Source: Alphaproteobacteria bacterium
GTDB lineage: Bacteria; Pseudomonadota; Alphaproteobacteria; UBA2966
NCBI GenBank assembly: GCA_964291395.2
Contig: OZ219856.1
Location: 352,001 to 416,000, forward strand
DNA: 64,000 bases
Direction: 5' to 3'
Each line of letters begins with the position of its first letter. The first letter of the stretch is position 1. The position numbers were made by a program, and so were the translations under genes. Shown here one piece after another: positions 1,839 to 50,424 of this stretch. The notes below the pieces were generated by a model. That model saw only the letters and a list, made by a program, of their open reading frames with translations, was not told the DNA's origin and ran no database searches.

Positions 1839-3323
1839 ATGCGAACGATCATCCGCGGAGGGTGGGTCGTTGGGTTCGAGAACGATCATCACACGTTGGT
1901 CCCCAACGGCGTCGTCGTCTTCGAGGGCGACAGAATTCTTCACGTGGGACGGGAGTTCGAGGGAACCTGCGACCGCGAGATTGACGCCACCGGTAAGCTG
2001 ATCTGCCCCGGCTTCATCGATACGCACGTTCATTCGGGGCACCGCGCCACCCATCGTCTGATATCGGATGCCGGCCGTCCGGAATTCTTCGGCCAGCCCT
2101 TCCTAGAGTTCACAATTCCGAAGGAAGGCACAAAGGTCAGGGGAGACAAGCGATTCCACGACCCCGATCCCGACGACATAGACGACTCGGATTACTTTTT
2201 CGCATTGTTTACCGTCGCGGAATTGCTGCGTAACGGCACCACGACATATCTGGAGATCGCCGGGCAGGTCAGAATTCAGGAGCAGCTCGCCCGGGCGACT
2301 GAAGAACTCGGAATCAGGGCTTATCTGGGTACCGGATACCATTCCGGGCGTTGGGTTGGCGGTGATGGTGGACATCTAAAACGGGTAATCGATGAACCCG
2401 CCGGTATGAAGCTGTTCGAGATTGCCAAGGACTACATTCGGAAAATTGAAGGCACCTGCGATGGCCGAATCCGAGGGCTGCTATGCCCCGAGTCAGCCGA
2501 TATCTGCAGCTTCGAGATGATCCGCGACACACGAAAGGCCTCGGATGAGCTCGGAGTACCCATCCAAATTCATGCTTCTTACAGCGTCCTGGAGTTTACT
2601 CAGATTGTCCATGAGCATGGGCTGACGCCGATCGAATTCCTGGAGAAGGCAGGTGTCCTCGGCCCGGGCACGTCCATCGGTCACGGCAACTTCATCGGCG
2701 AGAACCGGCTGATGAACTATTCGGCCGGGCGTGACCTCGAGATTCTGGCGGAGACCGGAACGTCGGTCGCCCATTGCCCGGTCAACCTGGTACGGCGCGC
2801 GCGCTATCTGGAATGGGACCGTTTCCAGAAAGCCGGGATCAATATCGCGCTGGGAACTGATACGTATCCCCGCGACATGATCATGCAGATGCGGATGGCG
2901 TCGTATTTCGGCAAAGTCATCAGTGGCAGTTTTCTGGCCGGTACGGCGGCCGAGGCGTTCGAGGCGGCGACGCTCGGCGGGGCGCGGGCAATTCAACGCG
3001 ATGATTTGGGCCGGCTGGCGCCGGGCGCCAAGGCGGACATCCTCATCATCGACACGATGGGGCACAACAACCTTCGCTGGGGTCCGATCAAGGACCCCAT
3101 CAAGAGCCTGGTCGAATGCGGGATTTCAGATGACGTCGAGACGGTCTTCGTGGACGGGATCGCCCGAATGGAAGACCGCAAGATCGATGGCGTCGACATG
3201 TCGGAAATTACGCAACGTGCCCAGTCCGTTGCCGAAGACATATGGGACAATCTGCAGGAGTGGGATCCCCTCGGCCGTACGGCGGAGCAGATGTGTCCGT
3301 GGTCATTTCCAATAGCGGAGTGA
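1839..3323 (+). CDS. Amidohydrolase family protein (AtzA/MTA-SAH deaminase/chlorohydrolase-like)
   Basis: PGFIDTHVH metal motif, HCP, GTD, GRLAPGAKAD; GGAGG RBS before ATG 1839. Confidence 0.88.
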   Translation: MRTIIRGGWVVGFENDHHTLVPNGVVVFEGDRILHVGREFEGTCDREIDATGKLICPGFIDTHVHSGHRATHRLISDAGRPEFFGQPFLEFTIPKEGTKVRGDKRFHDPDPDDIDDSDYFFALFTVAELLRNGTTTYLEIAGQVRIQEQLARATEELGIRAYLGTGYHSGRWVGGDGGHLKRVIDEPAGMKLFEIAKDYIRKIEGTCDGRIRGLLCPESADICSFEMIRDTRKASDELGVPIQIHASYSVLEFTQIVHEHGLTPIEFLEKAGVLGPGTSIGHGNFIGENRLMNYSAGRDLEILAETGTSVAHCPVNLVRRARYLEWDRFQKAGINIALGTDTYPRDMIMQMRMASYFGKVISGSFLAGTAAEAFEAATLGGARAIQRDDLGRLAPGAKADILIIDTMGHNNLRWGPIKDPIKSLVECGISDDVETVFVDGIARMEDRKIDGVDMSEITQRAQSVAEDIWDNLQEWDPLGRTAEQMCPWSFPIAE

Positions 3324-3390
3324 GTGGTACCAAGGCGAAGAACATCTGTTCGTTCGACTCATCGGAGGCCGACAACAAGGAGGACTTGCC

Positions 3391-4398
3391 GTGAGACATT
3401 TCATTACGCGAATTGGTATCTCAGCGTTACTCGTTCTGGGCGTGGTTGGCCTATCCGCATCCACGAGCAGCGCGGCCCTTAAGGATCCGGTTCACCTGCG
3501 GATCGCCACGGCCGGAATCGGCGGCGGCTGGTACATCTACGGCGCCACGTTCGCTTCGGTGATGCGCAAGGCGCTCCCCAAGGGATCTACCATCGATGTG
3601 CTGCCCATCGCGGGCTCGGTTGGCAATCCGAAACTCGTCAACAAGGGCGATGCGGAATTCGGTCTTGCCCAGACCGTGACGGGCTACTGGGCAACCAATG
3701 GGATCGAAACCTATGACGCGCCCTTGGACAACGTCAGGGCCATCGCCGGCGGTTTCGACGAACTTTGGATGGCCTTCATCGTCGACAAGAAAAGCGGCCT
3801 CATGTCGATAGACGAGGTCAAGGAGAAGAAATATCCGCTACGACTCCTGACGGCGCAGCGCGGCGGCACGGGCGAGCTCGTGACGCGGATGATCCTGGAC
3901 GCCTACGGCATGAGCTACGGCAGTCTGGAGGAAGCTGGCGGGTCGGCAAAGCCCGTGCCGCGGCCCTCGGTGCCCGGCATCATCCGCGAAGGCAAAGCCG
4001 ATGCCTACAGCCATAGCATCATGGTCGGCCATCCGACGGTCGTAGAGCTTTCCACCAACGTCGACGTTCGGTTCCTGCCGCTCAAGAACGACGTGATCGA
4101 CAAGCTCTCCAAGACCGGCCTGGCTCCTGTCACCATTCCTGCCGGGACATTCAAGGGACTGGACAAGGACGTGCCTAGTGTGGGCTCACCGACGATCCTC
4201 ATCGTGCGGGCCGACTTGGACGAAGAGGTGGTCTACACGGTCACCAAGGCGCTGTTGGAGAACAAGGCGGCGCTGGACAAGGGCCATGCCGGCCTCAAGC
4301 CGTTCGATCCCGAAACCGCTTGGAAGCAGGAAAAGCTTAGCGTACCACTGCATCCCGGCGCGGCTCGGTACTACAAGGAGCGAGGCTGGATGAAGTAG
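3391..4398 (+). CDS. TAXI-family TRAP transporter solute-binding protein
   Basis: Signal peptide, ATAGIGGGWY, GSVGN, C-terminal PLHPGAARYYKE. Confidence 0.93.
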   Translation: MRHFITRIGISALLVLGVVGLSASTSSAALKDPVHLRIATAGIGGGWYIYGATFASVMRKALPKGSTIDVLPIAGSVGNPKLVNKGDAEFGLAQTVTGYWATNGIETYDAPLDNVRAIAGGFDELWMAFIVDKKSGLMSIDEVKEKKYPLRLLTAQRGGTGELVTRMILDAYGMSYGSLEEAGGSAKPVPRPSVPGIIREGKADAYSHSIMVGHPTVVELSTNVDVRFLPLKNDVIDKLSKTGLAPVTIPAGTFKGLDKDVPSVGSPTILIVRADLDEEVVYTVTKALLENKAALDKGHAGLKPFDPETAWKQEKLSVPLHPGAARYYKERGWMK

Positions 4399-4523
4399 AG
4401 AGGTCTATGGGCTGATCCGGATTTCCGGAGATACCGCGCGGCTTGTCGCCAAAATTCCGGGTATGCCCGAAACGCGTGTGTTCACGCCTTACCGCTAGTC
4501 CACTTGGGCCCAGTGGTAGAGGC

Positions 4524-4712
4524 GTGAGCGCCCACAAAGGATGCTTGGTACCAGCGGCCTGGGTGTCCGCATTTGCGGCCACCCAGGCCGTTTTCAAATC
4601 TAGGCCGCCTGAGATGTGCCCTAGCGCTACTGCCCCTATAGCCGTCGGGGCCTTTTCCCTGTCGCAACACACACGACTGATCGAGCGAACCGCCTACCCG
4701 GTCGAGGTCCGC
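4524..4712 (+). pseudogene. Degenerate 5' remnant of a TRAP fused permease (paralog of 7412-9334)
   Basis: Encodes SAHK..LVPAAWVSAFA and LSQHTRLIERTAY matching the N-terminus of 7412-9334, with an internal deletion. Confidence 0.85.
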
Positions 4713-4880
4713 TTCTAAGATGTGAAAACCGGGCCGCTCGGCAAAGGGCAGCATCTCTGTATTCAACCGGCTGAGATGGTCCAGGCTCCCTTCCTTCCGT
4801 TGCAGAAAGTGTCTTCCCAGCCGTGGCACGATAACTCTTGCGCGGGACTGAATTCCAACCCTCAGGAGGCCAGACCAGAT

Positions 4881-21024: not shown

Positions 21025-21110
21025 GCGGGCGTGGCGGAATGGTAGACGCAACGGACTTAAAATCCGTAGGGCGCAAGCCCGTGCTGGTTCGAGTCCAGCC
21101 GCCCGCACCA
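21025..21110 (+). tRNA. trnL: tRNA-Leu (anticodon TAA)
   Basis: GCGGGCG/CGCCCGC acceptor stem, ACGGA-CTTAAAA-TCCGT anticodon arm, long variable arm, GGTTCGAGTCC, CCA end. Confidence 0.97.
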
Positions 21111-36594: not shown

Positions 36595-36619
36595 AGTTCG
36601 GTGTGGCTGCGCTCGTGAT

Positions 36620-38038
36620 CTACCGTTCGTAGAGCGGGGCCTTGCCCTTGTACCCACTCCAGGCGAACCAGTAGGCGATGTGGCCCGGCAACCTGGCCAA
36701 GGTCTGGCCATCGTTGCCGACAAGAGACTCCTCCTCGACCCGCCAGCTCTGACCGCCAGACTCCAGCGTATCGAAGCCTCGAGACCCCGCCGTGAAGTCG
36801 CGCCCGCGGGCGTCATAGGCCCGCACGGTGCGCGAGGCCGCGTCTCCGATGAGCACGATGTCGAGCGTCCCGATGCGGTCGTTGATCACGCGCCCACCCT
36901 CGAACTCCGAAAGGGGCCAGGCCTTCTCGTGGACGCCGCTGCGCAACGCGAAGACATAGTCCTTCGGCTTGAGCCGCGTGTCCCTGACCAGTGCCGGGAA
37001 CATCAGGTGGGGGCTCGCGAAGTAGCCGGCGTAGGGACGTCCGGGCGTGTAGTCGCGCGAATATCCTGTATCCAGAGACAGCACCCTGGTGTCGGGGTGG
37101 CGGGCCAGCCAGCGCTTCCACGTCGTGATGGCAACCGGACGCACCTTGAGTTCGATGCCCGAGCCGGTGAGCGGCCCGACCACCGGCCGGCCGGTGAACT
37201 GGTTCCACAGCGAGTGGGTCTCCCGGTCGTACATCAGCTTGTTCGAGCGGTAGAGAAACCCGGACGAGCCGAAGACGAAGCGGTCCGGCCGTCCGTGCAC
37301 ACGGGTCTCGAACAGGATGCCCGAACCGCACAAGGTGCAGTAGGCCAGGGCGACGGGCACGCCGCCGATGACGTCGTTGAACATCTCGTGCCAGTCGAGA
37401 ATGCGCAGCGGGTAGGCTCGCGCATCCCCGGCGATTTCCACGCCGAACACCAGCTCCTCGTCGGTAATGTAGGTCGCCGCCTCCGGCGAGACATGCTTCG
37501 GGTCGTTCAGCGCCGGGATCCCGTCCTTCCGTACCCCGCCCCAGACGATCTCTTCGAGGCGAATTTCGTGCTTCACGCCTCGTTTCAGGAACAGGCGGAA
37601 ACTCGGGTCGATCAGAGCGAAGAGATCGGCCTTGAAGGCGTCGTACCCCTCGAACGGCACGATCTCTGGGTGTGCTTCCTGCCACAGGATCCAGGCGTGC
37701 CAGTCACCGCCCAGAGTTTCGTCCGTCAAGGCTTCCAAGGTGTCGGCGAGGGATCGATCGTGGTCCCGGAAATAGCGGAGGATCTGGATCAGCGCCGGCA
37801 CGACGTCGGCATTTCCCCGCTCCTGCAAGCTTCGCAACACCTGGCGTCGTCCATTGACGTCCGCCGAAAGGATTTGGCGAACCGATTCCTCGACGTTCGT
37901 CGCGGAGTCGACGGCACGATCCTGCGCTGCCGCACAAATCGAGAGCGCAAGGACCGCCACGGCGACGCTGACGGTGCCGGCGGCGGCGGGAAAGGGAGTG
38001 ATGAACGGGAGGCGCATGGCAAGGGGCTTGGGTTTCAT
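36620..38038 (-). CDS. DUF3179 domain protein, exported (start uncertain)
   Basis: WGGVRKDGIPAL, ARAYP, WHEMFND, YCTLCGSG, SLWNQFTG, YWFAW. Confidence 0.88.
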   Translation of the reverse strand: MKPKPLAMRLPFITPFPAAAGTVSVAVAVLALSICAAAQDRAVDSATNVEESVRQILSADVNGRRQVLRSLQERGNADVVPALIQILRYFRDHDRSLADTLEALTDETLGGDWHAWILWQEAHPEIVPFEGYDAFKADLFALIDPSFRLFLKRGVKHEIRLEEIVWGGVRKDGIPALNDPKHVSPEAATYITDEELVFGVEIAGDARAYPLRILDWHEMFNDVIGGVPVALAYCTLCGSGILFETRVHGRPDRFVFGSSGFLYRSNKLMYDRETHSLWNQFTGRPVVGPLTGSGIELKVRPVAITTWKRWLARHPDTRVLSLDTGYSRDYTPGRPYAGYFASPHLMFPALVRDTRLKPKDYVFALRSGVHEKAWPLSEFEGGRVINDRIGTLDIVLIGDAASRTVRAYDARGRDFTAGSRGFDTLESGGQSWRVEEESLVGNDGQTLARLPGHIAYWFAWSGYKGKAPLYER

Positions 38039-39652: not shown

Positions 39653-40939
39653 TTACGCCCCGGCCGTCGGCAACGTATTCTTGCATACCCGCCCGTCCTG
39701 CATGATCAGGACAATCCGATCCTTGTCCCTGAGGACACGGACGTCCCGGGACGGATCGCCGTCCACGATCAGCAGATCGGCCGCCTTTCCCACCTCCAGC
39801 GTGCCCCACGACCCGCTCCGGCCGATCGCGCGAGCCGAGGTCCGGGTCGCCGCCTGGAGGACCTCCATTGCGGACAGTCCCAGATCCTGCAGATATTCCA
39901 TTTCGGAGACGAGGTCGTAAGGCGGGAAGACGTGCGCCGCGTCGGAGCCGACGCCGATCGGGGTTCCCGCGCGTCGGGCACGCTGGACGGTGTCCGCGCA
40001 GGCTTCGTAGGCCACCCGGCAGCGGTCGATGAACGTCTGCACGTCCGAGGGTTCCGTGCCGCCCGATCGGAGGAACGCCCGAGCGTAATCCTCGTTCACG
40101 CGGAAGTGCAGCCAGGAAATGGTCGGCACGAACACGCAGCCCGCCTCGGCCATCAGATCGAGGCCTTCGTCATCCGCGAATTCCCCGGAGTGAAGGGAGA
40201 TAACGCCGGCGCGGACCGCGTCCTTGATCCCGTCGGCATCGTGCGCGTGCGCGTGCACCGACTTGCCGAACTTCGCTGCTTCCTTCACGGCCGCGTCGAT
40301 CTCCTCGAAGGAAAGGTCCTGCGTGTCCCCGTCGATCCACGGGTTGCCCGGTGTCCCGCTGGCGGTCACCTTGACCCAATCGACACCGGATCGGATCTGC
40401 TTGCGCACGGCGGTCTGCATTTCCTCGGTGCCGTTCACGGCGACGCCGAGATAGGTCTCGTTCTCGTGGTAACCCCAGGCGCCGGTGTGATCTCCGATAC
40501 CGCCCGACCCCGACAGCATCTGGCCCGCCGCCACGACCTTGGGTCCCCTGATCACACCCTTGGCGACCGCATCCCGAACCGCCGTGCCGATGCGGCCCCG
40601 GCAGGCGCCGTCGCCCACCGCCGTGCAACCCGTCTCCAGGACCAGAGCCGCGTTCTCCGCGGCCTTGAGAACGTTGAACTCCAGGCTCTCGTTCATCTGC
40701 TGAAGGATGAGCGCGTATTCCTTGGCGTGATAGGTCAGGTGGGTATGCGCATCGATCAGTCCGGGCATGACCGTGCGGCCCTCCGCGTCGATGACCTCCA
40801 TGTCCGGGGTGGTCTCGAGCGAGGCACCCTCTCCGGACCGGCTGATCCGCCCCTGCTCGACGACCAAGGTCCAGCCGTGGCGGACGTCGATGTCCGTCCC
40901 GTCGACGAGACGTGCATTGACGATGGCGGTCGCCGCCAT
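39653..40939 (-). CDS. Metal-dependent amidohydrolase (Xaa-Pro dipeptidase-like subfamily)
   Basis: PGLIDAHTH, WVK, HAH, GSD, GKAADL. Confidence 0.88.
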   Translation of the reverse strand: MAATAIVNARLVDGTDIDVRHGWTLVVEQGRISRSGEGASLETTPDMEVIDAEGRTVMPGLIDAHTHLTYHAKEYALILQQMNESLEFNVLKAAENAALVLETGCTAVGDGACRGRIGTAVRDAVAKGVIRGPKVVAAGQMLSGSGGIGDHTGAWGYHENETYLGVAVNGTEEMQTAVRKQIRSGVDWVKVTASGTPGNPWIDGDTQDLSFEEIDAAVKEAAKFGKSVHAHAHDADGIKDAVRAGVISLHSGEFADDEGLDLMAEAGCVFVPTISWLHFRVNEDYARAFLRSGGTEPSDVQTFIDRCRVAYEACADTVQRARRAGTPIGVGSDAAHVFPPYDLVSEMEYLQDLGLSAMEVLQAATRTSARAIGRSGSWGTLEVGKAADLLIVDGDPSRDVRVLRDKDRIVLIMQDGRVCKNTLPTAGA

Positions 40940-40942
40940 CGG

Positions 40943-42391
40943 CTAGCCCTGCGGCACGCCCGCGTCGTCGAGGAAACTCCGGTCGTTGACCGGATTGGGC
41001 CGGTCGCAGGGCAGGAACTCGCCCCGGCCCGCCTTGCCCACGAACTCTCCGTCATGCCAGATGATTTCGCCGCGAGACACGGTCACTTCGGGCCAGCCCT
41101 GGACGTCGAGTCCGTCATAGGGCGTGTAGTCCATGCCGTCGTGCAGACCGGCGATGGAAATGGTCGTTCGACGATCGGCATCCCACACCGCGAAATCCGC
41201 GTCCGAGCCGACGCCGATCGTGCCCTTGCGCGGGTAGAGGCCATAGATCTTGGCGGGATTCGTGGCGGAGACGGCAACCACCTGGTTGAGGTCGATGCCG
41301 CCCGCCGTCACGGCGCGGGAGAACAGCAGCGGCAGGCGCGTCTCCACCCCGGGCACGCCGTTGGTGATCCGGTTGAACGGCGGGTTCGGTCCGTGCACCA
41401 GCTTGCCCTGGGGGTCGTCATAGCGGAATGCCGCGTGATCCGACGAATAGACGTGGAAAACGCCGGTCTCCATGGCGTGCCATAGGGCGGCTTGGTTCTC
41501 GGGCGTTCCGGGCGGCGGCGCGCAGATGCACTTGGCGCCCTCCATGCCGTCCTTATCGAGATCGTTCTCGTTCAGGAACAGGTACTGGGGACAGGTTTCA
41601 CCGTACACCTTGAGACCGCGGCTCTGCGCCCACCGGATCGTCTCCGCCGCCTCGCCGGTGGCGACATGGACGATCAGGATCGGCACGTCGGCGATCTCGC
41701 CCAGGGTGATCGCCCGGTGCGCCGCCTCGCGTTCCACCGGCGGCTGGTGCGCGATGCCCTTGAACTTCGGCGCCACGCGGCCGCTCTCCAACAGCTTTCC
41801 GGTCAGCCAGACGATGCAGTCCGCGTTCTCGGCGTGAATCATCATCATGGCGCCGTGACGGCGCGCGACCGACATGACTTCCAGGATCTCATGGTCGCTC
41901 AGCATCAGGGCCTTGTAGGTCATGTAGACCTTGATCGAGGTGTAACCCTCCTCGATCAGCGACGGCACTTCCTGGCCGAGCACCTGAGCCGTGGGGTCGG
42001 CGACGATCAGGTGTATGGCGTAGTCGATGACCGCCTTGCCGACGGGCTTCCGGCGATACGCCTCGACGGCGGCGCGCAGCGATTCGCCCTTGATCTGCCG
42101 CGCGAAGGGAATCAGGGTCGTCGTCCCGCCGCAGGCCGCGGAAACCGTGGTCGTGTAGAAGTCCGTGCCGGGCCGGGCGCCCGTCTCCGGGGAGTCCTGC
42201 TCGATGTGAACGTGGGCGTCGATCCCGCCGGGCAGGACGTACTTACCGGTCGCGTCGACGGTTCGCGCAGCATCGCGCAGCCCGTCGCCCAGTGCGGCGA
42301 TCTTGCCGTTCCTGACTCCCACGTCGCAAACCCAGGTGTCGGCGGCCGTCACCACCGTGCCACCCCGGACCACGAGATCGAATTCCGTCAT
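40943..42391 (-). CDS. hydA: Dihydropyrimidinase/D-hydantoinase
   Basis: PGGIDAHVH, KVYMTY, HAEN, ETCPQYL, SDH, NGVPGVE, NPAK. Confidence 0.93.
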   Translation of the reverse strand: MTEFDLVVRGGTVVTAADTWVCDVGVRNGKIAALGDGLRDAARTVDATGKYVLPGGIDAHVHIEQDSPETGARPGTDFYTTTVSAACGGTTTLIPFARQIKGESLRAAVEAYRRKPVGKAVIDYAIHLIVADPTAQVLGQEVPSLIEEGYTSIKVYMTYKALMLSDHEILEVMSVARRHGAMMMIHAENADCIVWLTGKLLESGRVAPKFKGIAHQPPVEREAAHRAITLGEIADVPILIVHVATGEAAETIRWAQSRGLKVYGETCPQYLFLNENDLDKDGMEGAKCICAPPPGTPENQAALWHAMETGVFHVYSSDHAAFRYDDPQGKLVHGPNPPFNRITNGVPGVETRLPLLFSRAVTAGGIDLNQVVAVSATNPAKIYGLYPRKGTIGVGSDADFAVWDADRRTTISIAGLHDGMDYTPYDGLDVQGWPEVTVSRGEIIWHDGEFVGKAGRGEFLPCDRPNPVNDRSFLDDAGVPQG

Positions 42392-42482
42392 GCGCGTCCC
42401 CCCTGTCCTGTCCATCACAGACTACGCTTTGCGGCGGGATGGTGCCAGGCACGGCGCCTGTCACCGAGGGCCTCGAGCCGCA

Positions 42483-42595
42483 TTGACACGCCGTATGCCG
42501 CCTTTCATCGTGACGGAAACGGGTTCGATGCTCGGCTCGTCCCGCGAGAGGGGGTCACCCGCGCATCGATCCGTTCTCAATGGACGGGTGACATC
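42483..42595 (+). promoter_or_regulatory. Sigma70-like promoter and structured 5' leader of the ure cluster
   Basis: TTGACA (42483) - 17 bp - CATCGT (42506); alternative hairpins 42518-42575 and 42554-42592. Confidence 0.5.
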
Positions 42596-43045
42596 ATGCT
42601 CCGCCTGACCGGCATTGTGGGCCACGCGAGCGACGCCGAAATCGCGGACAGATTGCATGACCTCGGTCACCACGGACGCGTCGAGAGCATCGTCCTGAGG
42701 CGTGCCGATACTCTGCGCCATCGACTCAGGATCAATACGGACCGGGGCACCGAATGCGCGATCGCGCTCGCCCGGGACCAGCATCTGTCCCAGGGGGCCG
42801 TCCTTCTTCTCGAGGACGATCGGGCCATCGTCGTGCGCATGGAAGAGGAATCCTGGCTGCCGCTGGAACCGCGGGACGCCGCCACGGCGCTGGAACTCGG
42901 CTATTTCGCAGGCAACCTGCACTGGCGCGTCCGCTTCGACGGTGAAGTCCTCAAGGTGGCCCTGGAAGGTCCCGAGGCCGACTACATCGCCCGCATCGAG
43001 CCGTTTCTCGCCGACGGTCGGGTGAGGCGGGTTTACGATGGCTGA
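42596..43045 (+). CDS. ureE: Urease accessory protein UreE
   Basis: RHRLRINTDRG, GAVL, LGYFAGNLHW. Confidence 0.88.
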   Translation: MLRLTGIVGHASDAEIADRLHDLGHHGRVESIVLRRADTLRHRLRINTDRGTECAIALARDQHLSQGAVLLLEDDRAIVVRMEEESWLPLEPRDAATALELGYFAGNLHWRVRFDGEVLKVALEGPEADYIARIEPFLADGRVRRVYDG

Positions 43046-43718
43046 GCCGGCGCGCCTCCTCGCCGCGCTGCAGCACGGCGACAGCTTCTTTCCGAGTGGG
43101 GGCGTTTCCTTCTCCTGGGGCCTCGAATCGCTATGCGCGGAGGGTCTGGTCGCCGACGAGACGGATGTTTGCCGGTTCGTCCAAGGTCAGCTCAGCCATC
43201 GTTGGGCGACGTGCGACCGTCCTGCCTTGATCGCTGCCCATCGGGCAGGAAGGAATCTTGAGAGCGTTGCCCTCGTTGACGCGGAACTCGAGGCCCTGGC
43301 GCTGCCCCAGGGATTGCGCGTCGGCAGCCGGCGCGCCGGTGGGGCGCTCCTCAACGCCCATGAGCGATTGGAGACCCGACACGCCAAAGAGTATCGGCGG
43401 ATGGTCAAGACCGGATCGGCGTTCGGGCATCTCCCGGTGGTGCAGGGACTGGCATGGGGCGCCGTCGGGCTCGCCGAAGAAGTGGCGGCGGCCGTATCGG
43501 CCCACACCCTTTGCGTGGCCCTCCTGGGTGCGGCGCTTCGGCTCGGCGTCATCGGCCATGTGGGGGCGCAGCGGATTCTCGATGACATGCGGCCCGAAAT
43601 GACTCGCTTGCTGTCGTTGCCGGTCCCGCCGCCCGGCAACTTCAGCGCCTGCACCCCGGCCGCCGATATCGCCGTGATGCGCCACGAGACGGCGGAGGTT
43701 CGACTTTTCGCGAATTGA
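43038..43718 (+). CDS. ureF: Urease accessory protein UreF
   Basis: DSFFPSGG.SFSWGLE, AALRL, RHETAEVRLFAN. Confidence 0.92.
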   Translation: MAEPARLLAALQHGDSFFPSGGVSFSWGLESLCAEGLVADETDVCRFVQGQLSHRWATCDRPALIAAHRAGRNLESVALVDAELEALALPQGLRVGSRRAGGALLNAHERLETRHAKEYRRMVKTGSAFGHLPVVQGLAWGAVGLAEEVAAAVSAHTLCVALLGAALRLGVIGHVGAQRILDDMRPEMTRLLSLPVPPPGNFSACTPAADIAVMRHETAEVRLFAN

Positions 43719-43745
43719 AATCGACACCAGTCAGGGAGGAAGAGG

Positions 43746-44447
43746 ATGCTTCTGACACCCACCGAGATGGAGCGGTTGACCATCTTCACCGCGGCCGAGC
43801 TCGCGCGCCGGCATCAGGCCAAGGGGCTTCAACTCAATCATCCCGAGGCCGTCGCCATCATCGTCGATGAAATTCTCGAGCGCGCTCGCGAGGGCCAGAG
43901 CGTGGCGGAGCTGATCAGCTTGGGGTCAACCCTGCTCACGACGGATGATGTGCTGCCCGGCGTGGCGGACCTCATGCCGATGATCCAGGTGGAGGCGACC
44001 TTTCCTGACGGGACCAAGCTCGTCACGGTCCACGACCCGATCCGCCCGGGCAAGAAACCTATCGCCAAGAAGGACCGGATCGCGCCAGGTGAAATCATCG
44101 CGGCGGAAGGCGACATCGAGCTCAATGCCGGCCGTCGCACCGCGACGGTCAAGGCCGTGAATACCGGCGATCGGCCGATCCAGGTGGGCAGCCACTACCA
44201 CTTCTTCGAGGTGAACAAGGCGCTGGACTTCGATCGCGCAGCCGCATTCGGCATGCATCTCGACATTCCGGCGGGAACCGCCGTTCGCTTCGAGCCGGGC
44301 GAAAGCAAGGAGGTCACGCTGGTCGCCTTCGGCGGCACCGGCGAGGTCCATGGTCTCAATTCATTGACCGACGGGGCGACGCGCAGCGACAACCGCCGGG
44401 AAGAGGCGCTGCGGCTCGCCCGTGATGCCGGATTCAAGGGAGCCTGA
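43746..44447 (+). CDS. ureAB: Fused urease gamma-beta subunit
   Basis: [44 protein letters not shown]. Confidence 0.95.
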
Positions 44448-44450
44448 GCC

Positions 44451-46163
44451 ATGGCCACGATCACACGCAAGGAATACGCCGAGCTCTACGGCCCGACCAC
44501 CGGTGACGCGATCCGCCTCGGCGATACCTCGTTGCTCGCCGAAGTCGAGCACGACTTTGCCTTCCCGGGCGACGAATGCCTGCATGGCGGTGGCAAGACG
44601 CTCCGCGACGGGCTAGGTCTCACGGCCGGTTACGACAGCGCCGCGGGGTCGCTCGACATGCTGCTCTGCAATGCCCTGGTGATCGATCCCGTCCTCGGTG
44701 TCGTGAAGGCCGATATCGGCATCAAGGATGGCGTCCTCTCGGGCGTTGGCAAGGCCGGGAACCCGGCGGTGATGGATAACGTCGACCCGGCGCTGGTCTG
44801 CGGCGCGGCGACCACGGTCCGGGACGCCGAAGGCCTCATCGCAACACCGGGCGGCATCGACGTCCACGTCCACTTCGACAGCGCCCAGCTCTGCGAGCAC
44901 GCCATCGCCTCGGGGATCACCACCATGATCGGCGGCTCGCTCGGCCCCATCACCGTGGGCATCGACTGCGGCGGGGCCTGGAACGTTGGCAAGATGCTGC
45001 AGGCCGCCGAGCAGTGGCCGATCAATTTCGGCTTCCTCGGACGCGGCAACTCATCCAAGCCGCGGTCGCTACTCGATCAGATATCCGGCGGTTGCCTCGG
45101 CCTCAAGATCCATGAGGACTGGGGTGCCATGCCGGCGGTGATCGACACCTGCCTGTCGGTCGCCGACGACCTCGACTTCCAGGTTCAACTGCATACGGAC
45201 ACGCTCAACGAGAGCGGATTCCTGGAAGACACGCTGGCCGCGATCAACGGTCGCACCATCCACATGTACCACACCGAGGGAGCGGGCGGCGGCCACGCAC
45301 CCGACATCATCCGCGTGGCGGGAGAGGCCAACTGCCTGCCGTCTTCGACCAATCCCACCAATCCCTACACGGTCAACACCTTCGACGAGCACCTCGACAT
45401 GACGATGGTGTGTCATCACCTGAACCCGGCCATACCCGAGGACGTGGCTTTTGCGGAAAGCCGAATCCGGGCGCAGACCATCGCCGCCGAGGACGTGCTC
45501 CACGATATCGGCGCAATCTCGATGCTGGGCTCCGACAGTCAGGGCATGGGCCGGATCAACGAGGTGATCTGCCGGACCTGGCAGCTCGCCAGTAAGATGA
45601 AGGATCAGCGGGGGCGTTTGGACGAGGAACAGACCCGCATCGGGGACAACGAGCGCATCCGCCGGTATATCGCGAAGTACACCATCAACGCGGCCCGTAC
45701 GTTCGGGATCGATGATCACGTGGGATCTCTGGAACGTGGCAAGCTCGCCGACGTGGTGCTCTGGCGGCCGGGATTCTTCGGCATCAAGCCCGAGCTCGTG
45801 GTCAAGGGCGGTTTCATCGTCTGGGGTGCGATGGGCGACAGCGCCGCGTCGTTGATGACCTGCGAGCCGCTGATGATGCGTCCCCAGTGGGGAGCCTTTG
45901 GCGAGGCCCGCAAGGCGCTGAGCGCGAGCTTCGTCAACCAGGGCGCCGTGGACGCCGGCATCGCCGAGGGGCTCGGACTCAGGAAACGCGTGCTGCCGGC
46001 GCGGGGGACCCGCAAGCTCAACAAGCAGCACATGCTGCGCAACGACGCGTGCCCCGACATTCGCGTCAATCCGCAGACCTTCGACGTCTTCGTCGACGAC
46101 GAGCTGGCGACCTGCGAGCCGGCCTCGACGTTGCCGTTGACGCAGAGATACATGCTGCGATGA
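44451..46163 (+). CDS. ureC: Urease alpha subunit, divergent
   Basis: [41 protein letters not shown]; substrate loops altered. Confidence 0.93.
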
Positions 46164-46795
46164 ACGCCGCCGTCACACAGGACTCTCCCTCGGCTGCCCG
46201 GGTCGGCATCGGCGGGCCCGTCGGGTCGGGCAAGACCGCGCTGCTCGAGCAGTTGATCCCCCGGTTCGAGGCACGGGGCACCGAGATCGCGGTCGTGACC
46301 AACGATCTCGTGACAAAGGAGGACGCGGAGCGGCTACGCCGCAGCGGGTTGATCGCGCCGGACCGCGTCATGGCCGTCGAAGCCGGCGCCTGTCCCCACA
46401 CGGTCATCCGCGAGGACCCCACGCTCAACATCGAGGTCGCGGATCTGTTGGAAGACACGTTCGATCCGCTCGATCTCATCATCATCGAGAGCGGCGGGGA
46501 CAATCTCGCCTCCACGTTCTCCCTGGACCTCGTCGATTACTGGCTGTTCGTGATCGACGTGGCCGGCGGCGACGACATCCCCCGCAAGCGGGGCCCGGGT
46601 GTCGTGCAGAGCGACATCCTGGTGATCAACAAGGCGGACCTCGCACCCTACGTCGGTGTCGATCTCGACCGGATGATCGCCGAGGCCGCCGACGTGCGCT
46701 CGGGCCGTCCCGTGCTCGTGACCAACTGTGCCACCGGCGAGGGAGTCGACGCGGTCGTCGAGCGGCTGGTCCACGACGTGTTGTTCGATGAATAG
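46160..46795 (+). CDS. ureG: Urease accessory GTPase UreG
   Basis: [22 protein letters not shown]. Confidence 0.96.
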
Positions 46796-47660
46796 CATCG
46801 CCCCGCTGCCGCTCGCGGGAGAGGGACAGGGCGAGGGCCCTGGCCGCCTGTCCCTGACGTTTTCCCGTGACGGCGACGGCCGGACCTACTTGGACCGCCA
46901 ATTCGCGGGCTATCCGTTCCACGTCTGCCGGCCGCATTATTTCCCGCACGATGTACCGGGGATGGCAACGCTCTACGTTCAGTCGAGCGCAGGGGGCCTC
47001 TACCAGGAGGATGCGCACGACATCGAGATCGTTGCGAATGACTGGACGCGTGCTCACGTCACGACTCAGGCGTCGACCATCGTGCACGGCATGGAGCGCG
47101 GAGCCGCCGTGCAACGGACGACCGTCACCGCTGGTCCCGGAAGCCACGTGGAAGTGGTTCCGGATCCCCTGATCCTGTTCCCCGCCGCGAGTCTGTCGAC
47201 GACGCTGATGGCTCGCATCCACGATACGGCCACGGCCGTCATCGCGGAAGCGTTCCTGATGCACGACCCGGACTCGGCAGACGCGGCATTCGATTCCTTT
47301 CAGGCCGAAGCGGTCATCGGGGATTGGGACGGTACGACCCTTGCCGTTGACCGTTTTCGTATTTCGGGCCGCGACGTCTTTGCGGCGACGCCCGGAATTA
47401 CCGGGGCAGCGCGGGCGCAGGGCCTGCTCATGATCGTGGGGCGCGGAACGGACCAATCCGGCCTCATCGCAGCTCTGCGCGCAGATCTGGGCGTGCAGGA
47501 AGACGCATTCGGCGGCGTATCCGAATTGCCCAACGGTGCCGGCGTCTCGGTGCGGCTGCTGGCGCCTGACGGAGCCGCGCTCCGCGCCGCCATGCTCGCC
47601 GCCTGGGCGTCGGCCAGTGAGACTCTGACCGGTGTGCGGCCATTGCTGCGGCGCAAGTGA
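46788..47660 (+). CDS. ureD: Urease accessory protein UreD
   Basis: YPFH, SSAGG, TTQAST, PDPLILF, terminal RRK. Confidence 0.9.
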
Positions 47661-47751
47661 ACGTGCTCTGCATTGGCGAGAGAATCTGGTGAGGTGCGCG
47701 AGAGATGTGGCGACGTCTTCGGGGATTCATTTGGAAGGTGGATAGGAAGCC

Positions 47752-48525
47752 ATGGAACCAGGCGTGAAGGGATTCGACCTGATCGATCGCGTGGCCGTCA
47801 TAACCGGCGGCAACGGTCGGATGGGGCGTGCCAGTGCCTTGAGGCTGGCGGCCGCCGGAGCCGAAGTGGTGGTCACCGACGTGACGCTCGACGGCGCGCA
47901 GGACATCGTCTCGGAGGTCGGGGAAGCCGGACGAAAAGCCCTTCCTGTGATCATGGTCGTCACCGACGGCGACGCTGTCCGGCTGACCGCCGATCGGATC
48001 GTCGCCGAGTTTGGCTCCGTCGACATCTTGGTCAATGCCGCCGGCGTGACCAAACGCCAACCCGCCGAAGAGTTTCCCGAGGCAGATTGGGACCGGATTA
48101 TCGGCATCAATCTCAAGGGCACCTTCCTGTGCTGCCAGCTTTCGGGCGCCCGATGATCGCTTCGGGCCGCGGCACCATCGTCAACCTGGCCTCGATCGGC
48201 GGGGTCATCGCTCTCCCCAACAGCGTTGCCTATTGTGCCAGCAAGGGCGGCGTCGTTCAGGTGACTCGCACGCTCGCGGTCGAATGGGCGCCGCACGGGG
48301 TGCGGTCAATGCCATTGCGCCGTCGCCTATTGACACGCCGCTCGTCCGAGCCGTGTTGGACGCGCCGAGCCCGAATATCGGCAGCGCATGTTGGAGAACG
48401 TTCCCCTGGGCCGCATGGGCAAGCCCGAGGAAGTCGCCGATGCGGTGCTGTATCCGGCATCCGACGCCTCGGCCCTGGCGACCGGGACCGTCCTGCCGGT
48501 GGATGGCGGCTACATGGCGCGGTAG
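47752..48525 (+). pseudogene. Frameshifted SDR (gluconate 5-dehydrogenase-like)
   Basis: TGGNGRMG/NAAG, YCASK, NAIAP and PLGR...VDGG fall in successive frames; shifts near 48138, 48305 and 48363. Confidence 0.85.
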
Positions 48526-48603
48526 GCGGTCGATTGTTGACTCGTCTCTGGCTCGGGCTCATCGTGAGACCTCGCCGCGCGAGATGCTGGCCGGGCTGGT
48601 TGC

Positions 48604-49425
48604 ATGCTGACTGCCGAGGAAAAGCAGACATTCGACGAAGAGGGGCTGGTCGTGCCCGGCTACCGGCTCCCCGACGACTTGATGAGCGACCTTCGCGCGC
48701 TGACGGATCGGGTCATCGCGGAAACACCGCAGATACCGCCGGATTTCCTGTTCAGTCCGCATTTGCCCTGGGCCGGACAGAAGGACACGAGCCTGAGCGA
48801 CGGCTTCATGGCCATCTGCCATCGCCCCGAGATCCTCGACGCGGTCGAGGCCCTCATCGGTCCCGACATCATCTTGTGGGCGAGTCGAATCTTCTGCAAG
48901 CCGGCGCGCACCGGCCTGGAGATCCCCTGGCACCAGGACGGCACATCGGGCTGGCCGATGCGGCCGCTGGCGTCCGTCGCGGTCTGGATTGCCGTGGATG
49001 ATTCCACGGCCGAGAACGGCTGCATGCGCTACATCCCGGGGTCCCACAAGCTGGGCGAGCTGCCGTTTGAGTTCTCCTCGCGTACGGACCTGGCGGTCAA
49101 CGTCGAGATCGACAACAGGGAATTCGATGCTTCGACCTCCCGCGACAACGTACTCGAGTCAGGACAATTCTCGATCCACCACATGTTCCTGGTGCACAGC
49201 TCGCAGCCCAACCTGTCCGGCAAGCGCCGCGCCGGGTTCGCGATGCGGGTCATGCCCGCGACCTCCCATTACGACCGCTCGAACGTCGTGGAGAGCCCGT
49301 CGAACCGGTACGACTTCGACCTCGCCAACGCGCCGCTCTTCCTGCTGCGCGGGGTTGACGCCTGTGGCCGGAACGACATCGTCACCGGACCCGTCGAGCC
49401 GCTGGATCTGAAGAAAGTCGGCTGA
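48604..49425 (+). CDS. Phytanoyl-CoA dioxygenase (PhyH) family protein
   Basis: PWHQD, WIAVDD, NGCMRYIPGSH, HSS.PN. Confidence 0.92.
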   Translation: MLTAEEKQTFDEEGLVVPGYRLPDDLMSDLRALTDRVIAETPQIPPDFLFSPHLPWAGQKDTSLSDGFMAICHRPEILDAVEALIGPDIILWASRIFCKPARTGLEIPWHQDGTSGWPMRPLASVAVWIAVDDSTAENGCMRYIPGSHKLGELPFEFSSRTDLAVNVEIDNREFDASTSRDNVLESGQFSIHHMFLVHSSQPNLSGKRRAGFAMRVMPATSHYDRSNVVESPSNRYDFDLANAPLFLLRGVDACGRNDIVTGPVEPLDLKKVG

Positions 49426-49512
49426 CGGGCGCGGCGGCCTTGAGCTGCGCGGCAAGAGCGTCGACAAACTTCAACCAGAGGTTGCAATCGGAAATGCGCT
49501 CTGCACCGCTGC

Positions 49513-50424
49513 TCAGGCAGCCGTCGATGCGGCCTGTTTCTGCTGAGGTATGCCCAGCATCTCGCGCGCTTCCTCCGGCGTCGCCACCTCGCGGCCGAGC
49601 TCGCGGCAGATGCGCGCGGCACGTTCCACCAGCTGGGCGTTCGACGTCGCGAGTTCGCCGGGACCGTAGTAGACGTTGTCCTCCATGCCGACGCGTATGT
49701 TGCCGCCCATGGCGACCGCCATGGTCGACAACGGCAACTGGTGCTTGCCGACGGAGACGATCTGCCAGCTCGATCCCTCGGGAACCGCGTCGAGCATGGC
49801 CAGCAGGTTCGCCGGCGAGGCCGGGATGCCGCCCTGGATGCCCATCACGAAACTGAAGTGCATGGGATCTTCCAGGACGCCCTTCTTCTTGAGATCGAGC
49901 ATGTTGGCGATGTGAGAGAGATCGTAGACCTCGAGCTCGTTGTGGATTCCCCGGTACTTGCAGCCTTCGACGAACTCCGTGTTCCACGCCTTGGAGTTGG
50001 AGAAGAGGAATTCGTCGCCCTTGTGGTCGAAATGGAAGGTCCCGCAGTTCACGGTCAACATGTCCGGCTGGGGCGCCAGTTCGAGGAGGTTCATCCGCTC
50101 CTCGAGCGAGAAGTTGTGGCCGGTCCCCTTTTCGTCGAACCAGATGCCGATGCCGCTGCCGACCTGGGTGATCATGCTGGAACAGCGGCCCATGACGCCG
50201 TCGACCACGTCGTTATAGATGTCGAGATCGGCGGACGTCCTTCCTTCCTTGTCCCGCACGTGGATGTGCGCGACCGAGGCGCCGGCGTTGTAGCAATCGT
50301 AGAAGTCGCTCACGATCTCGTCCGGCTGTTCGGGCAGGGCCGGGTTGGCTTCCCGTCCGTGCAGGCCGCCCGTGGTGGCGATGGTGATGATCACCTTGTC
50401 CTGATGTGTGAGGTTCGGTTTCAT
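49513..50424 (-). CDS. Beta-keto acid cleavage enzyme (BKACE/Kce, DUF849)
   Basis: NPALP, AHIHVR, ELEVYD, GGNIRVGMED. Confidence 0.93.
   Translation of the reverse strand: MKPNLTHQDKVIITIATTGGLHGREANPALPEQPDEIVSDFYDCYNAGASVAHIHVRDKEGRTSADLDIYNDVVDGVMGRCSSMITQVGSGIGIWFDEKGTGHNFSLEERMNLLELAPQPDMLTVNCGTFHFDHKGDEFLFSNSKAWNTEFVEGCKYRGIHNELEVYDLSHIANMLDLKKKGVLEDPMHFSFVMGIQGGIPASPANLLAMLDAVPEGSSWQIVSVGKHQLPLSTMAVAMGGNIRVGMEDNVYYGPGELATSNAQLVERAARICRELGREVATPEEAREMLGIPQQKQAASTAA

Follow-up and report, generated by a model that had tools for sequence, protein, structure and literature searches.

The stretch of alphaproteobacterial DNA analysed here (64 kb long, and referred to throughout as the window) carries, at 42596-47660, a complete and mobile six-gene nickel-urease cassette of a distinct and widespread lineage. 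The observation made in an earlier annotation from the letters and their translations (the sequence-only reading) is confirmed. The encoded enzyme is probably a true urease, with urea as its most likely substrate, because the catalytic residues and the carbonyl donors of the pocket are kept, urea transporters and urea-yielding enzymes are found near related cassettes, and many genomes that carry it have no other urease. The cassette is laid out as follows.

42575-47664, plus strand: six-gene urease cassette, delimited by the extent of blastn similarity to its closest other copy (locus L003)
42596-43045, plus strand: ureE, nickel chaperone of 149 amino acids, without a His-rich tail (Pfam UreE_N, 39.5 bits)
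43038-43718, plus strand: ureF, 226 amino acids, overlapping the end of ureE by 8 nt (Pfam UreF, 99.6 bits)
43746-44447, plus strand: ureAB, fused, 233 amino acids, gamma module at residues 1-100 and beta module at residues 113-211 (Pfam Urease_gamma, 142.6 bits; Urease_beta, 152.6 bits)
44451-46163, plus strand: ureC, catalytic alpha subunit, 570 amino acids (TIGR01792, 823.3 bits; cut-off 680)
46160-46795, plus strand: ureG, GTPase of 211 amino acids with P-loop and CPH motif (TIGR00101, 234.7 bits; cut-off 204.2)
46788-47660, plus strand: ureD, 290 amino acids from an ATG that overlaps the end of ureG (Pfam UreD, 109.4 bits)

The six genes are co-directional, in the order ureE-ureF-ureAB-ureC-ureG-ureD, with ends that overlap or nearly abut. 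(The ATG of ureG, for example, overlaps the ureC stop codon in ATGA; ureD has an alternative GTG start at 46728.) None of the six reading frames is interrupted, the genes are translationally coupled, and all six proteins match Pfam urease models; the gamma, beta and alpha modules and the maturation proteins UreD, UreE, UreF and UreG are all present. Four of the proteins (UreC, UreAB, UreE and UreG) also pass curated NCBIfam cut-offs, and no NCBIfam model matched UreF or UreD. UreE scores 195.2 bits on NF009752 (cut-off 162) and UreC 151 bits on Pfam PF00449, which together with PF01979 makes up the alpha-subunit domain models. UreAB scores 358.6 bits on NF009671, the 'bifunctional gamma/beta' model (cut-off 243), over residues 1-232 of 233, and 265.4 bits on the Helicobacter-type UreA model NF010592, which is below the cut-off of 353. 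The Pfam and NCBIfam matches bear out what the sequence-only reading had said of the gamma-beta fusion, the order of the genes and the possession of a maturation set of its own. An Rfam scan of the whole window finds no known RNA element, riboswitches included, upstream of the cassette (its sole match is a tRNA gene at 21025-21107), and a scan of 42300-48700 finds no promoter-like site and three terminator-like sites, against 3.4 expected by chance.

In fold and domain set the enzyme is the same as the canonical dinickel ureases (Klebsiella aerogenes UreABC, Sporosarcina pasteurii, jack bean and Helicobacter pylori UreAB). UreC is about 52-61% identical to canonical ureases and scores 666-689 bits against solved canonical chains (the best at ~688). 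Shared features are the nickel ligands, the position of the carbamylated lysine, the substrate-binding histidine, the Cys-His of the flap, the arginine and methionine of the active site, and the four accessory proteins. In contrast, the window's enzyme has a shorter pocket loop, glycine in place of both pocket alanines and HFDSAQ in place of HFICPQ; its lineage lies outside the canonical clade, its gamma and beta modules are fused in a form that stays below the cut-off of the Helicobacter-type model, and its genes run in the order E-F-AB-C-G-D. The segments of UreC in which likeness and difference reside, all placed by alignment, are these.

44865-44888, plus strand: HVHFDSAQ, residues 139-146, with ligands H139 and H141, and with D143-S-A replacing I-C-P
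44931-44981, plus strand: short pocket loop [18 protein letters not shown], residues 161-177 including the closing AW
45102-45125, plus strand: LKIHEDWG, with the carbamylated-lysine position K219, substrate-binding H221 and D223
45405-45419, plus strand: MVCHH of the mobile flap, with C321 and the general-acid H322 kept
45531-45554, plus strand: SDSQGMGR, residues 361-368, with nickel ligand D362, and with G365 replacing the second pocket alanine

The nickel ligands of UreC (H139, H141, K219, H248, H274 and D362) are intact and align with H134, H136, K217, H246, H272 and D360 of the K. aerogenes enzyme. UreC also keeps H221, D223, G279, C321-H322 of the flap, R338 and M366, matched in the alignment to the catalytic and substrate-binding residues of K. 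aerogenes urease (His219, Asp221, Gly277, flap Cys319-His320, Arg336 and Met364). The reported integrity of the ligands and of the CHH flap holds in this alignment as well as in a larger alignment of 55 rows, and the divergent motifs (HFDSAQ, the short loop, SDSQGMGR and [10 protein letters not shown]) lie exactly where they had been placed.

The divergent motifs are properties of a whole lineage. Among the best 120 matches from 5.8 billion proteins (85-99% identical to the window's UreC and, where the database gives a name, called 'urease subunit alpha'), HVHFDSAQ is present in 118, the canonical form being HIHFICPQ. SDSQGMGR occurs in 120 of 120, where all 26 canonical sequences examined have SDSQAMGR; the segment at UreC residues 45-54 is likewise found in all 120, and UreC has LH in place of KF before GGGK. 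The pocket loop [17 protein letters not shown] spans 17 residues from GG to W, three fewer than the canonical 20; its first 15 residues, [15 protein letters not shown], correspond to 44931-44975, G170 occupies the position of the canonical urea-contacting alanine, and D172 is new. This exact loop is present in 116 of the 120 homologues and, with C replaced by S, in two more; the remaining two gave off-target matches to the loop pattern, probably since the closing W differs. The 20-residue loop GGGTGPxxGTxATTCTPGPW is found in 23 of the 26 canonical sequences (one other gives a 19-residue match and two do not match the pattern). A comparison of 122 sequences of the lineage with the 26 canonical ones gives 242 alignment columns in which both groups conserve the same residue, and 48 that are conserved within each group yet different between them. 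The latter cluster at residues 44-45, 140-145, 163-174, 220-227, 365 and 465-480.

What the two alanines do in canonical urease is described in the available part of a review (PMC7433671): the backbone oxygens of alphaAla170 and alphaAla366 hydrogen-bond the Ni(2)-bound nitrogen of urea, as the sequence-only reading had stated, and within the pocket the C-beta of Ala366 is in van der Waals contact. Since the hydrogen bonds come from backbone carbonyls, urea is not excluded by the replacement of alanine by glycine alone.

The proposed enzyme would be a two-chain dinickel urease (fused gamma-beta plus alpha), loaded with nickel and CO2 by its four accessory proteins, and its mechanism would be the canonical one. 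The oxygen of urea would bind to Ni(1) and one of its nitrogens to Ni(2), where it would be held by the main-chain carbonyl groups of G170 and G365, groups that persist when Ala becomes Gly; the bridging hydroxide would attack, with H322 of the flap acting as general acid.

That the metal should be other than nickel, or the maturation different, is very improbable. The second urease of Helicobacter mustelae contains iron, and pocket and second-shell residues do differ here (HVHFDSAQ versus HIHFICPQ); nevertheless, a full UreE/F/G/D set accompanies the enzyme and UreG keeps its P-loop and CPH motif. Although UreE has no His-rich tail and a HupE/UreJ nickel permease was looked for and not found in the window's own genome, that genome has one gene for a NicO-family metal transporter, and a HupE/UreJ gene follows the related cassette on an Aminobacter plasmid.

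The window's UreC falls outside the clade of characterised (canonical) ureases. In a quick IQ-TREE tree (LG+C20+F+G4; 49 rows and 569 columns from the 55-row alignment, with only seven canonical rows and with six ligand-less, very divergent rows left out), the window's lineage is one group of 17 rows (Shimodaira-Hasegawa-like approximate likelihood-ratio test, SH-aLRT, 88), and all 17 have the CHH flap in the alignment. This group is sister to urease-like families that lack the flap histidine (branch 99*). The canonical long-loop ureases, along with two degenerate families, make up a group of their own (97*). An approximately unbiased (AU) test of a grouping of the window's lineage with the canonical ureases, named after the tree had been seen, rejects it (delta lnL 90.7, p 6.2e-5). 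The divergence claimed for this urease has withstood this phylogenetic check.

The tree also bears on the notion of a 'remodelled' pocket. Distant families that keep the nickel ligands (P0124, P0127, P0129, P0131, P0132 and P0148) have a short loop and glycine before MGR, and the loop of P0135 is shorter still. Because short loop and glycine are common to all the non-canonical urease-like families sampled, the long loop and the alanines may instead be innovations of the canonical clade, a polarity that rests on a midpoint root. The differences are real and lineage-wide, but the direction of change implied by the term may be the wrong one.

The sister families themselves (L115-L126, L130 and L134) comprise urease-alpha homologues that are 55-68% identical to the window's. 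They resemble it in having a fused AB protein (59-67% identical), a loop of the type GGxxGPxFAIDCGGPW and SDSQGMGR. They differ from it in UreC (62-68% identity; 55-56% for L130 and L134) and in the flap, which reads CHL, AHR, AHN, SHL, CHS or AHF in place of CHH. Most have just AB-C or AB-C-D, and they are mostly without ureE, ureF and ureG alongside. A single genome may hold up to three urease-alpha homologues. The neighbourhoods of L118 and L115 contain a two-component regulator, a zinc-type dehydrogenase and ABC permeases, and in them there is no pointer to a substrate. By their sequences these families are likely nickel amidohydrolases, and unlikely to be efficient ureases because the flap histidine is lost.

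A further class (L131 and L132; 52-54% identical) has HPHFDSVQ, a CHN flap, GGGN for GGGH and the gene order C-E-F-G(-D); as a guess, it might match the ure2 type for which inactivity is reported in Brucella. A search of all proteins also retrieves full-length urease-like families at 36-54% identity. Among P0124, P0127, P0129, P0131, P0132, P0135, P0148, P0137, P0163 and P0165-P0196, some keep the nickel ligands and not the flap; in others of this set the ligands are wholly gone, which gives them the look of pseudo-enzymes.

The lineage to which the window's enzyme belongs is, to judge from its sequences, distinct, widespread and strongly conserved. A scan of one genome per prokaryotic species finds a relative encoded in at least 541. 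The best 80 of these encoding stretches, which form the basis of the locus counts given here, have a UreC that is 81-95% identical to the window's and come from Alpha-, Beta- and Gammaproteobacteria, from Acidithiobacillus ferrianus, and from a few metagenome-assembled genomes labelled otherwise. Identity at this level across classes implies strong conservation, presumably by purifying selection. Of the 80 loci, 50 have all six genes in the order E-F-AB-C-G-D, and the other 30 show subsets of it, many at contig ends. Representatives clustered at 50% identity do not resolve the lineage: so strong is the conservation of ureases that all of them come under two representatives (57-58% identity).

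Plasmids also carry the cassette. Among the plasmid matches listed, the UreC identities split into top matches at 77-80%, from cultured Aminobacter, Shinella, Ancylobacter, Methylobacterium and Acinetobacter, and all else at 61% or less. These plasmid copies (that of Methylobacterium is in M. radiotolerans) are labelled urease by NCBI and have the same six-gene order; those of Aminobacter aminovorans (plasmid pAA01) and M. radiotolerans (pMRAD01) have the same motifs and fall inside the clade. Ancylobacter polymorphus and Aminobacter sp. SR38 are cultured carriers of both urease types. They sit among genes for a urt-like transporter, AmiC-like and ANTAR proteins, HupE/UreJ and purine catabolism, whereas the copy in the window arrived without these.

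The neighbourhoods of related cassettes point to urea. Transporter genes were counted by tblastn because a crude open reading frame (ORF) caller undercounts GC-rich loci (it recovered UreC in 61 of the 80). In the 80 loci, UrtE-like sequences are found in 45, UrtD-like in 40, and UrtB-like and UrtC-like in 25 each; two or more Urt-like ABC transporter genes are present in 22 of the 41 loci with full 8-kb flanks, mostly upstream and on the same strand. Single representatives exceed the equivalog cut-offs for UrtB (333 bits versus 250), UrtC (410 versus 296) and UrtD (304.5 versus 304.1). True UrtA proteins are likewise found near cassettes, two of them with 511.9 and 538.9 bits (cut-off 492.75) and a third, cut by the edge of its locus, with 486.1. 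One ORF cluster is found in 12 loci (the one representative tested is arginase/agmatinase-like and lies below the agmatinase cut-off), and an ORF cluster with a type III glutamine synthetase as representative in nine. Purine-catabolism genes and HupE/UreJ lie near the cassette on the Aminobacter and Methylobacterium plasmids.

Co-occurrence points the same way, in part. In 50 genomes that contributed to the 80 fetched loci, searched for urease-alpha homologues at E <= 1e-50, the lineage provides the only such homologue in 22, and 13 of these 22 have two or more Urt-like genes within 8 kb. Among 400 evenly drawn genomes of the window's class (with up to three candidates scored in each), 112 have a urease-alpha homologue and 13 have this lineage (at 77-88% identity, one of them partial); in five of the 13 carriers the lineage stands alone, and in one it is accompanied by another copy of only 70% identity.

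Several observations nevertheless weigh against urea as the substrate. Both pocket alanines are glycine, the loop with the first of them is three residues shorter and has gained the conserved D172, the 48 columns are fixed differently, and the nearest relatives of the lineage are the families without a flap histidine rather than the canonical ureases. One or two more urease-alpha homologues are present in 28 of the 50 carrier genomes, and in the class sample seven of the 13 carriers possess, in addition, a copy of no more than 60% identity, in the canonical range; so frequent a second urease suggests some functional difference. Other substrate-binding proteins next to cassettes are UrtA relatives that stay below the cut-off (398-461 bits), and signal-less AmiC-like binding proteins score 328-361 bits on the same model. 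An ANTAR regulator is found in 8 of the 80 loci, and an AmiC-like query, which cross-matches UrtA-like proteins, in 25. The window's own genome has no UrtA above the cut-off (the best candidate scores 79.3 bits) and, as said, no detected HupE/UreJ. In Brucella suis the second cluster, ure2, is complete and transcribed and yields no detectable urease activity, according to the available part of its description (PMC1983905); it is a caution, rather than a relative shown here. Finally, biochemistry of any member of the lineage was not found in the literature searched, a search that had subscription journals and supplementary files outside its range.

From these observations one might construct an enzyme of shifted or broadened range, a nickel amidohydrolase that prefers something other than urea, such as an N-substituted urea, hydroxyurea, semicarbazide, formamide or acetamide. 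Space beside Ni(2) would come from the two Ala-to-Gly changes together with the shorter loop: both C-beta groups on that side of the pocket, including one with a contact described for canonical urease (PMC7433671, as far as available), are gone, and the loop now has a conserved aspartate; the sister families show that active-site change can go further, and the AmiC-like/ANTAR pairs, the sub-cut-off UrtA relatives upstream of some cassettes, the second ureases of the class sample and the Brucella precedent are all consistent with it. Such a shift is nonetheless unlikely. The backbone carbonyls that bind urea are kept with glycine and all catalytic residues are unchanged, bona fide UrtA and UrtBCDE proteins are encoded beside many cassettes, the enzyme is the sole urease of 22 of the 50 carrier genomes and of its own, no conserved neighbour indicates another substrate, and the window's own neighbours accompany the cassette in none of the 80 loci. 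The suggestion of a non-urea substrate thus finds no support in context, Urt-type transporters lying beside about half of the related loci.

At locus L083, on the Aminobacter plasmid, a signal-less AmiC-like protein and then an ANTAR regulator are encoded at 2947-4723, upstream of a string of transporter and urease genes. This AmiC-like/ANTAR arrangement hints that urea or a small amide exerts control through antitermination.

A wider conjecture can be attached to the idea of a shifted range. The enzyme might belong to a large radiation of short-loop, fused gamma-beta nickel amidohydrolases, with up to three paralogues in a genome, the members of which divide small amide and ureido substrates among themselves; the window's lineage would be the branch with the catalytic flap kept, and the Ala-to-Gly changes of its enzyme would then favor a substituted urea or a short amide over urea. 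We regard this as quite doubtful. If it were true, a share of the environmental genes now annotated 'urease' would be misassigned.

The cassette came to this genome as a horizontal insertion of 5.1 kb. The genome (4.16 Mb, 98.1% complete) contains no second urease-alpha homologue, and none of 12 related genomes searched (five of the same genus and seven of the same family) has a urease. Genome G055, of the same genus, lacks 42437-49505, and to either side of that segment it is collinear with the window. The closest other copy of the cassette, in L003, has a UreC that is 95% identical; its blastn similarity is confined to 42575-47664 (80% identity), with unrelated flanks. Because this similarity covers just the cassette, and because G055 lacks the segment, the six genes can be regarded as a mobile unit. 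What the sequence-only reading took for a paralog therefore has no canonical counterpart in its own genome: a divergent lineage with its own maturation set is what remains of that interpretation. Only short matches, of a kind often due to chance, were found in a search for flanking direct or inverted repeats as scars of insertion, and composition shows no anomaly (GC 0.65-0.67 over the cassette and its flanks).

Recent arrival, shown by absence of the cassette from those 12 genomes, might mean that it is an inactive or decaying hitch-hiker with no current function here, in a genome in which no dedicated urea transporter was found. This is extremely improbable, however: the six frames are open and coupled, protein identities of 82-95% across classes imply purifying selection, and the same dihydropyrimidinase-ureE junction is bridged by a contig from a sponge metagenome that a different study produced, with 57 differences over 2191 nt (~2.6%).

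The cassette is, more generally, found in public sequence data: 20 runs from 12 studies hold at least half of its sampled words, among them several labelled sponge metagenome and one sponge metatranscriptome. In one run, which may come from the source sample, the contigs over this region differ from the window at 0-2 positions. The run from an RNA library has near-identical contigs over parts of ureE/F, ureAB-C, ureG and ureD (DNA can occur in such a library). The host is probably a sponge-associated alphaproteobacterium, because near-identical DNA (window 41500-49500) occurs in sponge metagenomes of several studies. The cassette would give this organism its sole means of turning urea into ammonia, and the one arginase-family gene of the genome is a possible internal source of urea.

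The genes flanking the cassette in the window are these.

39653-40939, minus strand: amidohydrolase, divergent, upstream of the cassette
40943-42418, minus strand: dihydropyrimidinase/hydantoinase, divergent, upstream of the cassette (NF009941, 723 bits; cut-off 647)
48604-49425: PhyH
49513-50424: BKACE

As clues to the substrate these four neighbours were considered and rejected: they stand beside the cassette in none of the 80 loci, and since, in addition, the flanks are collinear in same-genus genomes without the cassette, they are incidental. The segment at 42437-49505 that is extra relative to G055 consists of the urease cassette, an SDR gene and a gene for a PhyH-like dioxygenase; a second extra segment, of 1.4 kb, lies at 36600-38031. 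In G053 the PhyH gene directly adjoins the dihydropyrimidinase gene, and the cassette is not between them.

Cassettes of this kind are already in print, at least as gene orders. The closest case is Acidithiobacillus ferrianus MG, whose 'urease 2' is written ureEF(A/B)CGD and judged to be horizontally acquired, urease 1 being canonical (Front Microbiol 2022, PMC8886135); what is available of that paper treats urease 2 as an acid-resistance urease and contains no enzyme data and nothing on differences of the pocket. The UreC of the A. ferrianus locus (L053) is 83% identical to the window's, has the same motifs and falls inside the same clade. The A. ferrianus genome also has urease 1, at 58% identity, whereas the window's copy is the sole urease of its genome. 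Mycobacterium smegmatis has ureABCFG and a second cluster, ureEFABCGD (BMC Res Notes 2013, PMC4222082); the likeness is one of written gene order, in a culturable model organism, and the part of that paper available gives only bulk urease activity and no growth on urea. A 'urease-like operon' on a Methylobacterium genomic island, a table entry in what is available of its source (PMC2680597), is likened to the cassette by that label only. With the gene order published (PMC8886135 and PMC4222082, in their available parts) and the proteins named by NCBI models, it was an overstatement to call this an undescribed system.

In soils, oceans, sponges and guts, the use of urea is traced by means of urease genes, and members of this lineage bear the plain annotation urease. 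The lineage travels between classes as a unit of 5 kb, is often its organism's only urease, and has a pocket that differs at exactly the two residues holding the reacting nitrogen of urea. Should it prove to be a normal urease, a urease can do without those alanines and the long loop, which would be useful for inhibitor design and for understanding of the mechanism; if it is not, nitrogen-cycle inferences drawn from such genes need revision. The flap-less sister families, for their part, are candidates for new nickel enzymes.

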